In this document: positions 1 through 5,793 of the stretch, one piece after another
How positions within the stretch are numbered: position 1 is the stretch's first letter
How the letters are laid out: each line of letters starts with the position of its first letter
Source: Escherichia coli
GTDB taxonomy: Bacteria > Pseudomonadota > Gammaproteobacteria > Enterobacterales > Enterobacteriaceae
NCBI RefSeq assembly: GCF_003334785.1
Contig: NZ_QOWV01000041.1
DNA length: 5,793 nucleotides
Direction: 5' to 3' (one strand)
The notes under the pieces: generated by a model
Told to the model about the DNA's origin: nothing
Database searches by the model: none
Seen by the model: only the letters and a program-made list of their open reading frames with translations
Position numbers and translations under genes: made by a program

Positions 1-223
<223 letters not shown>

Positions 224-553
224 CTGCAACGTTTTTCCGCCTGAAAGCTGACTGCCTCCTGCTGAGGTGGGAGGCTATGATTCAGTGCGTTTATAGTCTC
301 CGGGGTATGCATGTACCGGAGCATACCATTTCTGGTGGATAACAAGCCGGCACATTCAGACTGCAGTGAAGATGGAGGCACCTGGTTGTGAAGAACGTTT
401 CTGCCCGTGGCTGCTTCGCATCATCAATGGTATTCATACCCGCTCAGAAATGACCGGGTGCTGAAGCCCTCCGTTATCGCGCAGTATAATGACGTATATG
501 ATCTGTGGACGAGTGAGCGGCGTGCCTGATGTACGCCGCTATTACTGTATTTT

Positions 554-589
554 ACCACAGGGCTGGTTTTCTGCTGCCAGCCCTGTGGT
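554..589 (-). terminator. Perfect 13-bp stem / 10-nt loop hairpin just 3' of the minus-strand ORF; putative terminator
   Basis: ACCACAGGGCTGG (554-566), loop TTTTCTGCTG (567-576), CCAGCCCTGTGGT (577-589) is an exact inverted repeat. It lies 10 nt beyond the stop (599-601) of the minus-strand ORF. The flanking sequence is not a clean U-tract on either strand, so terminator function is an inference. Confidence 0.45.
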
Positions 590-598
590 TCTCAGACA

Positions 599-1201
599 TC
601 AACTGTGAGCGGCATCAACCGATGTACGGTATGCCATAAGCACGTACTGATCCATCAGATTTGTCAGTGGTTCACTCTGACCCTGACGTGCAATGATCCA
701 TTGCTCCAGATCTTTTTCTGATTTGTGTTTCAGGTTTTTCGTCCAGTCGTCAAGGCTGTTTCCGGTCATTAAGTCAAGCCAGCAGAGCCAGACCAGTTTG
801 AGACGTAACTCCGTGCCGCCAAACTGACGGAAGAGGCTGATCAGTTTGTTTGCCAGAGAATGTTGCTTCAGGCGCTCACATTCAGACAGCAGGATCCCTT
901 CCAGCATCGGATGATGAACCAGCAGGTGTTCGCTGGTGCATAAATTCACCACCAGATCATCATCCAGGGACGGGGAGCTCCGTTTGTCCGGACCATAAAT
1001 CAGCCGGTGCAGACTCTGGGGAACGATGGCAATCTCCGGTTTTTCGCCATTGAATGACACCCACCCGGGCGTCAGATTATGGAAATAGTAGATATTCGGA
1101 TGACACACGCCCCATGATACGGCGTGCCGGGTGAAGCCGGTCAGCCATTTCTGGTAGTTTTCATGGAGCAGCTCGTAACGGGTCTGATACTGTTGTTTCA
1201 T
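599..1201 (-). CDS. Hypothetical protein (~200 aa), no family recognised; downstream of and co-oriented with alpA
   Basis: Long ORF on the minus strand (six-frame track 599..1216). Likely start is ATG at 1201 with GAGGA 8 nt upstream; alternative starts are ATG 1207 and GTG 1216. It sits 87 bp after the alpA stop and is followed by the hairpin. No motif I can place. Confidence 0.65.
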   Translation of the reverse strand: MKQQYQTRYELLHENYQKWLTGFTRHAVSWGVCHPNIYYFHNLTPGWVSFNGEKPEIAIVPQSLHRLIYGPDKRSSPSLDDDLVVNLCTSEHLLVHHPMLEGILLSECERLKQHSLANKLISLFRQFGGTELRLKLVWLCWLDLMTGNSLDDWTKNLKHKSEKDLEQWIIARQGQSEPLTNLMDQYVLMAYRTSVDAAHS

Positions 1202-1294
1202 TTTCATATTCCTCACGGGGGATAACAGGCAGCAGAGCGCCGCCGGCAGGCCGGAGATTGCGTCTGCTGTGGGCGAAGGGTTAGTGGTTAAAAA

Positions 1295-1507
1295 TTACGG
1301 ACGGGACTGTGCAATACGCGCCTGCAGCCAGGCTTCCACTTCACTTTTCAGCCAGCGGGAGCTGCGCCCCATTTTGATGGGCGCAGGAAAGCCCCCATCT
1401 TTGATGAGTTTGTCAAACCACTTATCGGTTAGGCCGGTCAGTTGAGTGATAAACGCCATGTCGACCATCTGGTCATCCATCAGCGAAACTGGGGTATCCC
1501 GCTTCAT
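1295..1507 (-). CDS. alpA: AlpA-family phage/island transcriptional regulator (MerR-like HTH, excisionase-type)
   Basis: Translation MKRDTPVSLMDDQMVDMAFITQLTGLTDKWFDKLIKDGGFPAPIKMGRSSRWLKSEVEAWLQARIAQSRP carries the AlpA signature (HTH followed by GFP.P.K.G....W...E...W). Size is 70 aa from ATG 1507, with AGGG 5 nt upstream; the track ORF begins at TTG 1510. Start is uncertain; internal Mets at 1480 and 1468 are possible. Confidence 0.85.
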   Translation of the reverse strand: MKRDTPVSLMDDQMVDMAFITQLTGLTDKWFDKLIKDGGFPAPIKMGRSSRWLKSEVEAWLQARIAQSRP

Positions 1508-1922
1508 CAATGCCCTGAAAGCCCGAATCGACGCTTACCAGAAACGTAAGCATCGGGAAGGTAAACGCGTGCATCCCACAACCCTGCATTACGTCTGGGC
1601 CCGGGAGTTTGGGGAGTGCAAAGGTAAAAAACACTATCACCTGATGCTGCTGGTTAACCGGGATACCTGGTGTCGTGCCGGTGATTACCGTGCTCCGGGA
1701 TCACTGGCCGGGATGATTAAACAGGCGTGGTGCAGTGCCCTGGGAGTGGATGTCGGGTGCCATGCCACGCTGGTGCATTTTCCGGCCTGGCCGGCGGTGT
1801 GGCTGGAACGCGATGATGACACTGGCTTTCAGCAGGTGCTGGAACGTGCTGACTATCTGGCGAAGGAACATACCAAAGCTCACTGCACCGGTGAGCGCAA
1901 TTTTGGCTGTAGCCGGAGTTGA
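1446..1922 (+). pseudogene. YagK/YfjJ-family (inovirus Gp2-like, HUH-motif) replication-initiator-like protein, 5'-truncated remnant
   Basis: The ORF contains ..VSRFINALKARIDAYQKRKHREGKRVHPTTLHYVWAREFGE..KKHYHLMLLVN..LVHFP..ADYLAKEHTK..FGCSRS, matching my recollection of this family including the HYH (HUH) motif and the C-terminal FGCS end. The N-terminal ~90 residues of the family are missing. An in-frame TGA at 1443-1445 precedes the ORF, and the expected upstream space is occupied by alpA on the opposite strand. Confidence 0.6.
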
Positions 1923-2175
1923 GCACGACTGGCGCGCCAATACCCGGCAAACCAAAAGTATGGGTTGTTGTCTGGCGGCAACGATGTATCCACTCGCCCA
2001 CTGACTGTTTTTTACGTCAGTGTTCCATTGTGTGACAACCACAGTGCTGTAACAGCAACCAGCCTGCTTTACCCAAACTCCAGTCCAGATTTTAACTGAA
2101 CCGCCATTCACACCCTGACCACGCTGCCCGTACCGGGACGGCTGTTGCCTGCGTGTCGTCTGACGGCTGAGGAAT

Positions 2176-2583
2176 ATGACTATGTACGCAAAATCCTTTA
2201 TCGCTCTTGATGGCAACGGACGTCTGACGGGCGCCCGTACTGCACAGGCCGCACCTTATGCTAACTACACCTGCCACTTGTGTGGCAGTGCACTCAGATA
2301 CCATCCGCAATACGACACTGAACTTCCCTGGTTTGAACACACTGACGACAGGCTGACAGAGCACGGTCAACAGTGCCCTTATGTCAGGCCGGAGCGCAGA
2401 GAAATACAGTTGATTAAACGTCTGCAGCAATTCGTACCGGATGCCTTACCCGTGGTGCGTAAAGCCAGCTGGCACTGCAGACAATGTCACCACGATTATT
2501 ATGGGGAGCGGTACTGCACACACTGCCAGACCGGAGGATTCAGTATTCCCCGGACAACTCAGGAGGAAATATGCGAATTCTGA
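2176..2583 (+). CDS. Cysteine-rich zinc-finger / zinc-ribbon protein A (135 aa): CoiA-N-terminal-like CxxC..PWFEH module plus C-terminal CxxC-x9-CxxC ribbon
   Basis: ORF with ATG at 2176 (or 2182, 8 nt after GAGGA at 2169-2173). Contains YTCHLCGS..PWFEH and WHCRQCHHDYYGERYCTHCQTGG. It is a clear paralogue of the next gene, and conservation of the Cys/His pattern between the two argues that it is a real gene. Confidence 0.75.
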   Translation: MTMYAKSFIALDGNGRLTGARTAQAAPYANYTCHLCGSALRYHPQYDTELPWFEHTDDRLTEHGQQCPYVRPERREIQLIKRLQQFVPDALPVVRKASWHCRQCHHDYYGERYCTHCQTGGFSIPRTTQEEICEF

Positions 2584-2978
2584 ACTGTTATATGGCGAAT
2601 GACAGCAAAGGCCATTTTGTTACGGCGAAAGAAGCAGCGAAGCACAACCGCCAGGACGTTTTGTGCTGTGTGTCCTGTGGATGCCCGTTAACACTTCAGC
2701 GGGGCAATGACGGACAACCACCGTGGTTTGAACATGACCAGATGACTGTCGCTGAGAAAATCCTGCTGCGATGCACCTGGCTTGACCCGGCAGAGAAAGA
2801 GGCCCGTCGTTTGCATCTGCAGGGTATGACGGTTCCGGATTATACGGTGAAGGTGAGAAAGTGGTTTTGTGTGATGTGTGACGAAAATTATGAGGGGGAA
2901 AAGTGCTGCCCGAGTTGTGCTACCGGGGTATACAGCAGGGAGGGGGGGCAGGAGGGCAACTGGAAGGATAGGAACTGA
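2571..2978 (+). CDS. Cysteine-rich zinc-finger / zinc-ribbon protein B (135 aa), paralogue of protein A
   Basis: ATG 2571 is preceded by a consensus AGGAGG at 2561-2566 (4-nt spacer). The track ORF 2484..2978 starts further upstream, but the RBS supports 2571. Contains LCCVSCGCPL..PWFEH and FCVMCDENYEGEKCCPSCATG. It overlaps the stop of gene A (2581-2583) by 13 nt, suggesting translational coupling. Confidence 0.8.
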   Translation: MRILNCYMANDSKGHFVTAKEAAKHNRQDVLCCVSCGCPLTLQRGNDGQPPWFEHDQMTVAEKILLRCTWLDPAEKEARRLHLQGMTVPDYTVKVRKWFCVMCDENYEGEKCCPSCATGVYSREGGQEGNWKDRN

Positions 2979-3181
2979 GCGGTTCAGTCGCGGAAATCAG
3001 TTGCAGAGCTGTAATGATATCTCCGGGAGTGCTGCGTTGGTAGGGGCATCCCGGGATAGAGAAATTTTAGCACTTTGCCCTGAATGATTGTAGACGTCCC
3101 GAGTACTCGTACCGGTCTGAGTTATTACAGTTAGATATTCACTTTTTCTCCCGCATACTTCACATCTGTCAACGACGGATG

Positions 3182-3208
3182 AAAAGTGGTTCTTCCGCAA
3201 CCTGGGTG
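3182..3208 (+). repeat. Left terminal inverted repeat of the ISL3-family element
   Basis: AAAAGTGGTTCTTCCGCAACCTGGGTG at 3182-3208 matches the reverse complement of 4889-4915 (AAAAGTGGCTCTTCCGCAACCTGGGTG) at 26 of 27 positions. Confidence 0.75.
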
Positions 3209-3261
3209 GAAGAAAATGGATGAAACTTTCTGGCGAACAAGGATCTAAGCTGTTTTAAGTT

Positions 3262-4881
3262 ATGGGCAACGCAATGCACTCTCTTAAGACACTTCTACAG
3301 TTACCTTGCGGATGGCGATGCAGTCGACAAATTATTAGCTCTGACGGTATAACCCTCCATCTCCACGGAAAACGCAAAACAGCACAATGTCCTGAATGCT
3401 TTAAGCGTAGCGACTCTGTTCATAGTTGTCGTCGGCGCCGGATACAGCATCTACCCTGCTCAGGGCAGACGCTATGGCTTGTATTTTCCGTCCGCCACTG
3501 GTACTGCCGTAACCCGGCTTGTTCACGTAAAATTTTTGCCGAGTCGCTTGCTCCCTTCGCCAGTTCACACCAGCAGTCTTCACAGGCGTTACAAAATTAA
3601 CAACGTCAACTGGGATTAATAGCTGGAGGTGAGGCTGGAAAACGGGCTGCAACGGCAGTGGGTCTCCGTTGCAGTGCTGATACTCTTCTTCGCAGGCTTA
3701 TCAATACCCCGGAGACGAAACAGTCAGGCGCGCCTCATGTCGGTATTGATGAGTGGGCGTGGCATCGGGGCCACTGCTGCGGTATGTTAATAGTCAATCC
3801 TGATACTCACCGTCCCCTCGTCCTGCTTCCCGGCCGTGATCAGCGTACGCTGGCGACCTGGTTCAGAAAATATCCGGAAATACAGGTTGTCTCGCGTGAT
3901 CGCAGTGGAGTCTATGCGACAGCAGCACGTGAAGGTGCACCTCAGGCCAGACAGGTGGCCGATCGATGGCACCTGCTAAAAAATATTGGTGATGAGCCTG
4001 AACGAATGATGTACAGATATATGCCTCTGATACGTCTTGTTGTCAGAGAGTTATCACTGAAGAAATCACCTGAGCCAGAAATATCTGTGCCTGTAGCATC
4101 GCTCCGTCGTCTGGAACGCCTTAAACAGCACATCCGCAAAAAACGGCATCAGCGTTGGACAGAGGTTATGGCCCTGCATAACAAGGGATGTAGTTTCAGG
4201 GAAATATCCCGTATTACAGGCCTGTCGCGAGTGACAGTCAGTCGCTGGGTGGGTTCAGGAACATTCCCTGAAATGTCAACTAGGCCTCCAAAGCGAGGGC
4301 TTCTGGACCCATGGAGGGAGTGGTTAAAAGAGCAACGAGAATGTGGTAATTATAACTCCGGCCGGATATGGCGGGAAATGGTGGCCAGGGGGGTTACAGG
4401 CAGTGAAACCATCGTCAGGGATGCTGTTGCCAAATGGCATAAAGGCTGGATCCCACCGGTTACTACTGCCGCAAGACTTCCTTCAGTGTCCCGGGTAAGC
4501 CGCTGGTTGATGCCCTGGAGAATAATCAGGGGTGAAGAAAATTATGCTTTCCGATTTATTAGTCTGATGTGTGAAAAAGAACCGGAGTTGAAAATAGCGC
4601 AGCAACTGGTACTCGAGTTCTACCGTATTCTGAAAACCTAAAATAAATCACAGCTAAGCAGCTGGTTCACTCGGGTCCACGAAAGCGGCTCAGCAGAACT
4701 TCGGTGCGTAGCTGCGGGGATGGAAGCTGATGCTGCGGCTATATGTGAGGCAATCAGCAGTCGCTGGAGTACTGGTGTTGTCGAAGGTCATGTAAATCGC
4801 CTGAAGGTGCTGATACGCCAGATGTATGGTCGAGCCGGACTTGAACTACTTAGGCGGAGGGTAATGAGTCCACTGGCATGA
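3262..4881 (+). pseudogene. ISL3-family transposase, ~539 codons in a single frame, interrupted by two in-frame TAA codons (3598-3600 and 4639-4641)
   Basis: The track ORFs 3262..3600 and 3658..4641, plus the unlisted segment 4642..4881, are all in frame 1. Family-like sequence continues directly across both TAA codons (..QALQN*QRQLGLIAGGEAGKR.. and ..EFYRILKT*NKSQLSSWF..STGVVEGHVNRLK..). There is no frameshift. Confidence 0.8.
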
Positions 4882-4888
4882 AAATCTT

Positions 4889-4915
4889 CACCCAGGTTGC
4901 GGAAGAGCCACTTTT
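4889..4915 (-). repeat. Right terminal inverted repeat of the ISL3-family element
   Basis: CACCCAGGTTGCGGAAGAGCCACTTTT at 4889-4915; its reverse complement matches the left repeat. It begins 8 nt after the transposase stop (4879-4881). Confidence 0.75.
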
Positions 4916-4924
4916 GCACTGTTC

Positions 4925-5253
4925 GTGACAGTATGGCCTTTATGTACTCACTTTGTTACCGGTAGCTGGATCATCACTACCGTGCCGCAAATGGTGGTGA
5001 ACAGCATCAATTGTGGAATGAATGTTGCCGAAGCGACCAATGCGCCTCGTTTCCACCATCAGTGGTTGCCGGACGAGCTGCGTGTTGAAAAGGGTTTAGT
5101 CCGGATACGCTCAAGCTGCTGGAAGCAAAAGGTCAGAAAGTGGCGCTGAATGAGGCGATGGGCAGCACGCAAAGCATTATGGTTGGGTCGGATGGTGAGT
5201 TGTACGGCGCATCCGACTCGCGCTTGGTGGATGATTTAACGGCGGGGTATTAA
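4925..5253 (+). pseudogene. ggt: gamma-glutamyltranspeptidase 3' remnant, 5'-truncated at the IS and carrying a -1 frameshift
   Basis: Translation ..VTGSWIITTVPQMVVNSINCGMNVAEATNAPRFHHQWLPDELRVEKG, then after a frame change PDTLKLLEAKGQKVALNEAMGSTQSIMVGSDGELYGASDSRLVDDLTAGY* (stop 5251-5253), matches the GGT C-terminus as I recall it from E. coli. One T is missing from the T-run at 5095-5097. Relative to the remembered sequence there is also a probable 12-nt in-frame deletion (GSPGGSRII read as GSWII). The 5' boundary is approximate. Confidence 0.8.
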
Positions 5254-5258
5254 TTGAC

Positions 5259-5285
5259 ATCCCCCGGCGCAATGTGCCGGGGGAT
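5259..5285. terminator. GC-rich hairpin between convergent ggt and phosphotriesterase-family genes; probable bidirectional intrinsic terminator
   Basis: ATCCCCCGGC (5259-5268), loop GCAATGT, GCCGGGGGAT (5276-5285): a perfect 10-bp stem. It is followed on the plus strand by AATGGTTTTATG and lies between stop codons at 5251-5253 (+) and 5293-5295 (-). Confidence 0.6.
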
Positions 5286-5292
5286 AATGGTT

Positions 5293-5715
5293 TTATGCGG
5301 TCAATAATCGTCCGGGATTATCGATACAGAGTTTTTTGAGGATCGTTTTATCGACGCCGCGCTCCGCCAGATAGGCCAGAAAAACATCTGGAACAAATCC
5401 CCAGCCATTACCGCCATTTTTAGCCCACATTTGTTTAAGGAAGACATCGTGGCTGAGAACAAGCTGATCGGCGTATCCCAACTCAATGAGATGAGCGACG
5501 GCATCGGCAGTCTCCTGCACCCCTGGCGCTATTCCCTCTTTCGGGAAGGTAATGTCTAGGCCAATCATGTCGAATTCCAGCCAGACACCTTTATCAAGCA
5601 TTTTCCGCTGATACGCCACGTCTTTTCCTGACGGATCCGAGTGTGCGAGAGAGACTTTATTTGGCGAGACGCCCATTTCACCTAACACAATGTCGAGTAC
5701 TTCGTAAGCGACTCG
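5293..5715 (-). pseudogene. Phosphotriesterase-family (PTE/Php-like amidohydrolase) gene, C-terminal ~140 codons only; frame closed upstream by an in-frame stop
   Basis: Minus-strand translation ..RVAYEVLDIVLGEMGVSPNKVSLAHSD..LVLSHDVFLKQMWAKNGGNGWGFVPDVFLAYLAERGVDKTILKKLCIDNPGRLLTA* aligns to the C-terminal half of E. coli Php-type proteins (..SMDIT..KANGGYGY..ENP..). An in-frame TGA at 5716-5718 ends the frame upstream, and no PTE-like continuation is seen in any frame of 5719-5793. The track ORF starts at GTG 5688. Confidence 0.7.
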
Positions 5716-5793
5716 TCAGAACCGTATTGATATTTACTGAGAGCTCAGATCAACTTTCCAGGGCAACAGATCGCGTACCCGGTTTGCCGGCCA

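Follow-up and report, generated by a model that had tools for sequence, protein, structure and literature searches.

In this stretch of Escherichia coli DNA (5,793 nt in all; hereafter the window), an alpA-like regulator gene and a Rep-like gene of the YagK/YfjJ family (Gp2) overlap head to head over 62 nt (1446-1507), which raises the question of whether the overlap is an evolved arrangement, a chance feature or the mark of a rearrangement. The initial annotation favored a rearrangement, with a breakpoint within 1470-1500 produced by an inversion or a deletion. The breakpoint was recovered inside the predicted interval, between positions 1496 and 1497, and of the two processes only deletion was borne out, as 1,674 bp are gone relative to the intact allele, whereas the flanks are colinear and the genes are natively divergent. 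The head-to-head overlap is almost certainly the scar of this 1,674-bp deletion in a degenerate island. The genes concerned are as follows.

599-1201, minus strand: ORF200, gene for a 200-aa hypothetical protein (WP_000813432.1), directly downstream of the alpA-like gene and co-oriented with it.
1295-1507 (alternative start 1510), minus strand: alpA-like HTH ORF, now of 70 aa, from the ORF list and from RefSeq (WP_032179970.1 in AST198 and JKHS016).
1497-1922, plus strand: remnant of an inovirus-Gp2 / YagK-YfjJ (HUH Rep-like) gene, codons 49-189 plus stop, from Pfam coverage, alignment A1 and RefSeq.
2182-2583 and 2571-2978, plus strand: two tandem zinc-ribbon genes (DUF7828/Zn_ribbon_11), from the ORF list and module comparison.

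All of them belong to a degenerate E. coli genomic island that occupies the CP4-44 site, with tmaR/yeeX on one side and cobU on the other; neither the window nor the flanks fetched for this locus contain an integrase gene. Window positions 186-5703 are 100% identical to E. coli AST198, and a megablast search of 5,426 complete E. coli genomes with the whole window as query gave top matches split in three pieces over 8.5 kb.

The intact allele of PI7 (L001) has the same locus and the same flanking genes, whereas the window is without the central 1,674 bp. According to pairwise blastn and inspection, window 186-1496 corresponds to L001 7342-8652 and window 1497-5703 to L001 10327-14533, with 99.9% identity on either side of the joint; L001 8653-10326 is absent from the window, and the rest is colinear with PI7, leaving one clean gap. 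The sequence across the joint reads ...GAAACTGGGGTA|TCCCGCTTC... (the bar marking the joint), while the native left side runs on into GCCATGAG and the native right side is preceded by GCAGCTGTGATA. Homology at the joint consists of a perfect TA inside an imperfect 9-of-13 match, which makes the exact breakpoint ambiguous by 2 nt:

1495-1496, strand not applicable: deletion junction, with TA as a 2-nt microhomology, from blastn against PI7 and side-by-side junction sequences.

One break falls in the alpA-like gene, within codon 2, and the other in the Gp2 gene, at codon 49, so that the entire divergent intergenic region, a 66-aa zinc-ribbon/membrane ORF and both 5' ends were lost. The polarity of the event is that of a deletion here and not of an insertion elsewhere, because the missing segment encodes the native alpA-like start and the first 48 Gp2 codons, and because the intact Gp2 covers positions 1-170 of PF11726, whereas the window ORF covers 27-170. 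The alignment to intact islands that the initial annotation had proposed located the exact junction; the observation named there as contrary evidence, a full-length Rep-like protein starting at about 1446, was not seen.

In intact PI7, the alpA-like gene (8451-8657, minus strand) and the Gp2 gene (10183-10752, plus strand) are divergent and about 1.5 kb apart. In order, the module consists of two minus-strand genes (ORF200 and alpA-like), about 1.5 kb containing the 66-aa ORF, and then, on the plus strand, Gp2 and the two zinc-ribbon genes; the PI7 proteins are an HTH regulator (WP_000235214.1), the small ORF product (WP_001297900.1) and an inovirus Gp2 family protein (WP_000221530.1). The divergent intact layout was found in 2,380 of the 5,426 complete E. 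coli genomes, counted at a coverage of at least 80% of a 2.3-kb query, and it recurs in paralogous islands at about 86-97% DNA identity, where the spacer often contains an hha-like gene. The small ORF (L001 9783-9983, minus strand), conserved but absent from the window, has its place between the alpA-like and Gp2 genes in every copy; its product combines a zinc ribbon (CxxC...CxxC) at the N-terminus with a hydrophobic helix at the C-terminus. The zinc-ribbon pair is located downstream of the Gp2 gene, in the same orientation, in every module copy. Its two members are paralogous, overlap by 13 nt and are intact in the window, where they stand behind a promoterless pseudogene; their proteins had no match in NCBIfam or PHROGs.

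With both 5' ends removed, the overlap arose because each truncated ORF reads over the joint into the antisense of the other gene until a start or stop codon is reached. The DNA derived from alpA stops at 1496 and that derived from Rep begins at 1497, and each ORF consequently carries a foreign extension.

1446-1496, plus strand: spurious 17-codon 5' extension of the Rep-remnant ORF, antisense to alpA and colinear with the intact alpA side.
1497-1510, minus strand: spurious 5' extension of the alpA-like ORF, antisense to the Rep remnant.

The Rep-remnant ORF opens at GTG 1446, directly after the TGA at 1443-1445, and in the extension of the alpA-like ORF an ATG (1507-1505) and a TTG (1510-1508), both in frame, substitute for the native ATG and GGAGG that were deleted. 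The overlap is thus read-through across the scar, neither a chance feature nor an evolved arrangement.

On the alpA-like side, bases 1295-1496 are native and codons 1-4 (MKRD, 1497-1507) are foreign. The N-terminal extension previously ascribed to this ORF is accordingly mostly native, TPVSLMDDQ corresponding to native codons 3-11 behind a native N-terminus of MATPVSL..., and only the first four codons deserve the name. The native 68-aa form matches Phage_AlpA (PF05930) with an E value of 1.8e-5 over model positions 4-51 of 51, the protein matches PHROG excisionase/regulator families at 7e-9, and matches to NCBIfam excisionase models were below the cut-off. The RefSeq protein WP_032179970.1 sits on identical DNA at L003 6916-7128. 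What the gene lost comprises its upstream region, the GGAGG Shine-Dalgarno sequence, the ATG and most of codon 2. The proposal of an alpA promoter within the Rep remnant found no support, the native upstream region having been deleted; a sigma-70 consensus scan of window 1200-2000 on either strand likewise found no site, which is weak evidence, as the same scan is blind to the native alpA promoter. Applied to the minus strand upstream of the native alpA-like gene, it returned no site and is hence uninformative on the native promoter. ORF200, whose product had no match in NCBIfam or PHROGs, probably shares the alpA-like transcript and would then have lost its promoter as well. Judging from the sequence, the alpA-like gene and ORF200 are probably either silent or expressed at a low level via the captured ATG. 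The window is also without a strongly conserved block that precedes the native alpA-like gene (L001 8700-8760; …CACCGGCATAACAACCGGGGAGAAACGTAAAAAAT…); invariant in four paralogues of 86-97% overall identity (alignment A4), this block is a candidate regulatory element.

On the opposite strand, the Rep-like ORF (1446-1922) has 158 codons, and the TGA noted earlier immediately upstream is present and in frame. The ORF matches YagK_YfjJ_C (PF11726) with an E value of 4.8e-38 over model positions 27-170 of 170, starting at window position 1491, compared to 1.1e-47 over positions 1-170 for the 189-aa intact protein; the Gp2 family was also matched in PHROGs (phrog_25019, 6.5e-41). Rep residues had been recognized from about 1473 onward by the initial annotation, but Rep-derived DNA starts at 1497, and 1446-1496 is antisense alpA. 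The 5' truncation suspected there is real, as the Pfam coverage indicates, although its size had been overestimated at about 90 residues: 48 N-terminal residues are missing relative to the intact allele of the same locus, and 62 relative to K-12 YfjJ. Along with the first 48 codons, the gene lost its promoter region, ribosome-binding site and ATG, and the lost N-terminus holds a conserved LTALRVDLRF segment (Pfam model 1-26), of which LRVDL is common to K-12 YfjJ. The window copy does not span the complete PF11726 domain and is classed as a truncated remnant rather than a functional member. That the remnant is a pseudogene is already known from the RefSeq annotation of AST198 and JKHS016, where it is labelled "incomplete; missing N-terminus"; judged by its missing parts, the Rep-like gene would be dead.

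The family resemblance to HUH proteins lies in an H-Y-H motif (KHYHLMLLV), a His-hydrophobic-His arrangement that is invariant between YfjJ and the Gp2 family in alignment A1 and that falls within a weak match to REP_ORF2-G2P (PF23343, E value 2.6e-5). A D-Y-x-x-K motif (ADYLAKE), invariant in that alignment, is at most a candidate for the catalytic tyrosine motif. A PDB sequence search with Gp2 found no relative, NCBIfam offered no family name for Gp2, ORF200 or the zinc-ribbon proteins, and a search of the literature on YfjJ/YagK function yielded nothing directly usable.

The exact junction was found in 12 other assemblies examined, including the complete genomes of AST198 and JKHS016 and a gut metagenome, and all ten fetched loci with the chimeric 70-aa protein carried it, a Hadza/Nepal gut metagenome contig among them. 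By exact look-up in a large assembly collection, the chimeric protein occurred in 193 collection blocks and the native 68-aa protein in 27,750. The sampled carriers are free of SNPs over 186-1654 except for one at 670 in L013, and their differences elsewhere are patchy, affecting the ISL3 element of L012 and, in L007, a portion of the Rep remnant; this pattern fits one origin followed by local gene conversion. The 1,674-bp deletion allele is natural, and the near-identity of its sampled carriers suggests that it probably had a single origin. The patch in L007 (window-equivalent 1655-1868) consists of 12 SNPs inside the Rep remnant of a deletion carrier and is probably a gene conversion from a paralogous Gp2 gene.

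Three other accounts of the overlap were weighed against these observations, and each appears highly improbable. An inversion, with or without a deletion, could have turned a co-oriented alpA/Rep pair head to head, and the co-orientation regarded as normal by the initial annotation does exist in K-12 CP4-57, where alpA, yfjI and yfjJ are co-oriented with yfjI in between. The window module contains the same two families (AlpA 25% identical, YfjJ 38%, with common HYH and Y..K motifs) but is natively divergent: the intact allele of the locus and all paralogous copies examined already have this layout, and to the left and right of the joint the window follows the intact allele colinearly and in the same orientation. 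The CP4-57 comparison thus misled the earlier reading on orientation, and an inversion can hardly be entertained. The idea of a native overlap, that is, a compact divergent pair with a naturally short Rep-like protein starting from GTG 1446, draws on both ORFs being open and on RefSeq treating the 70-aa HTH protein as a normal CDS. It is nearly incompatible with a Rep-like ORF whose first 17 codons are antisense alpA, whose Pfam coverage begins only at model position 27 and which is missing a conserved N-terminal segment of the family alignment, while intact homologues of 189 aa outnumber it about 140-fold. Finally, IS fragments lie at both window ends, as is typical for contig ends, and could mean that the junction was created during assembly or in a chimeric contig. 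Unrelated projects have nonetheless recovered it in complete genomes, in drafts and in a metagenome, and a 2-nt microhomology is far too short for a k-mer mis-join, which makes an artefact very hard to credit. A deletion from a natively divergent pair is the reading retained here, and none of the observations speaks against it.

Further signs of rearrangement were observed in the window outside the alpA/Gp2 module. A second deletion joint is located at 186-187, where the interior of IS100 istB (window 1-187) is joined to DNA 1,154 bp downstream, with the loss of L001 6188-7341 (the remainder of istB, the IS end and a 50-aa ORF). This joint was found in no complete genome and is identical in the draft contig AARZGY010000004.1 (L014), which matches window 1-5702 at 100% and ends there. 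At the other end, window 5704-5793 is the terminus of an IS66-family element (starting GTAAGCG) that breaks a phosphotriesterase-related (php-like) gene between 5703 and 5704; this junction was likewise found in no complete genome, and the matching draft contig stops at it. Between these ends, 3262-4881 is an ISL3-family transposase pseudogene with an internal stop. L012 has an intact 538-aa copy at this position with about 80 differences, all within 3326-4818, which suggests replacement or gene conversion by another ISL3 copy. A 3' fragment of a gamma-glutamyltransferase gene (4961-5253) lies between the ISL3 element and the php-like gene, and its frameshift is further evidence for heavy decay of the region.

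The features at the joint between 1496 and 1497 are those of a microhomology-mediated deletion, namely colinear flanks, a missing interior and short homology without mobile-element ends. No long direct or inverted repeats were found at the deletion endpoints, single-stranded DNA folds at both endpoints on both strands gave hairpin z-scores of -0.6 to +0.5, and a search for known RNAs in Rfam gave no match at E <= 1 for the intact spacer (L001 8300-10900). The joining would have been illegitimate and guided by microhomology, through either slipped mispairing or break and join. In its clean internal loss, its 2-nt microhomology and its surroundings full of IS fragments and other pseudogenes, the event resembles the short-homology deletions that pseudogenize cryptic prophages and islands, and taken alone it is an ordinary pseudogenizing event in a decaying island. 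Unlike in random illegitimate recombination, however, the endpoint here recurs in independent events, and plain microhomology leaves the same-nucleotide endpoint of three other independent deletions unexplained.

At least four independent deletions end at CTGGGG|T|A (window 1494-1496, L001 8650-8652) within 1 nt of each other. They are represented by the AST198-type, FT130, BE2-5 and B-1109/L024 alleles at two paralogous loci, with the endpoint elsewhere at about 7117 in L004, 4000 in L021, 3121 in L030 and 1296 in L024. In three of them the other endpoint lies to the right, at a distance of 1,647, 1,674 or 3,021 bp, and in one it lies about 10 kb to the left. FT130 has a 1,647-bp deletion with the same left endpoint and a right endpoint 27 nt upstream (...GGATGTA|CCGGCAG). 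In BE2-5 the deletion extends leftward by about 10 kb, as estimated from coordinate offsets, and the right side of the site is kept; the interior of an rdcB-family gene (native ...ACCTGGGTA|ATCGCG) is joined to ...GGGTA|GCCATGAG. The fourth allele came from a protein search for alpA-like variants, in which one variant (P0025) had an antisense zinc-ribbon ORF fused ahead of TPVSLMDD; a deletion of 3,021 bp in a paralogous island is found in the three contigs encoding it (L024-L026) and also in the complete B-1109 genome. With a 99.5%-identical intact copy in SK1144 as the reference, this deletion spans CTGGGGT|AGCC to CCAGAT|GACTG. A break at either of two neighboring bonds would fit all four alleles. 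The DNA to the left of the site ends ...CATCCATCAGYGAAACTGGGG, that to the right starts AGCCATGAGAATGTTCC..., and CTGGGGTAGCC spans it. The three additional alleles were found by methods that do not select for the site, in a search that was not exhaustive and gave four alleles in all; under uniform breakpoints, we estimate the probability of the coincidence at about 1e-5 or less. Judged by these alignments, the endpoint looks like a site-specific deletion hot spot.

Two readings of the shared endpoint go beyond plain microhomology. The window allele may have formed in two steps, by an FT130-type 1,647-bp deletion followed by a 27-bp slippage between the imperfect 8-nt repeats CTGGGGTA and CTGTGATA, and FT130 is exactly the predicted intermediate, with 27 bp to be lost between repeats brought 19 nt apart. 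The FT130 allele was found in one genome only, though, with a more divergent right flank (22 SNPs), and BE2-5 and B-1109 use the same endpoint un-nested, so a shared endpoint needs no shared ancestry; the two-step route is consequently rather unlikely. A non-random breakpoint, with site-specific cutting or stalling at CTGGGG|T|AGCC (alpA-like codons 2-3) and deletions as by-products, is favored to a modest degree. It is consistent with four independent alleles at two paralogous loci ending within 1 nt, with the use of both sides of the site and with a microhomology of only 1-5 nt, and paralogues vary most at codon 2 (A/N/T/L/K), which adjoins the site and lies within an otherwise more than 90% conserved stretch. 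Against it stand the absence of hairpins and repeats at the site, and the small number of four alleles that the search provided, and the tests made here linked no enzyme to the site; the motif GAAACTGGGGTAG was also absent near K-12 yfjJ at up to 3 mismatches and was not over-represented in L001. IS110 was considered as a cause of the endpoint and rejected, the nearby insertion (ISEc20 in HM670) being about 175 nt away from the site, as was a module boundary, the paralogues being conserved on both sides of the site.

If the breakpoint is non-random, it could be due to the adjacent HUH-like Gp2, to a recombinase with an att-like core as its target or to a replication barrier formed by bound protein. 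Precedents come from phages and plasmids: Michel and Ehrlich reportedly described, in 1986, deletion hot spots at the nick sites of rolling-circle initiators (M13 gene II protein, pC194 Rep), and Parkinson and Davis are said to have found, in 1971, Int-promoted deletions starting at the lambda att core. The window site is alike in its nucleotide-fixed endpoint, in its variable partners with little homology and in having a neighboring gene from PF11726, a family that used to be called Inovirus_Gp2 in Pfam. It differs in its chromosomal setting, as opposed to a phage or plasmid one, and neither the site nor the protein family is known to have nicking activity, an origin or an att function. By analogy with the M13 gene II nick site, CTGGGG|T|AGCC might be an origin-like nick site of the HUH-like Gp2, or be cut by another recombinase of the island, with the deletions as by-products in either case; this more specific proposal is the most interesting one but unlikely. 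A search of the literature on nick-site recombination returned nothing directly usable.

For annotation, these results advise caution, since ORF overlaps at such scars are read-through artefacts and the start of the annotated 70-aa "regulator" is chimeric. What merits closer attention is the recurrent endpoint. The YagK/YfjJ family is very common in enterobacterial islands and is uncharacterized; if the endpoint reflects a specific cut, the site would provide the first testable substrate for this family.
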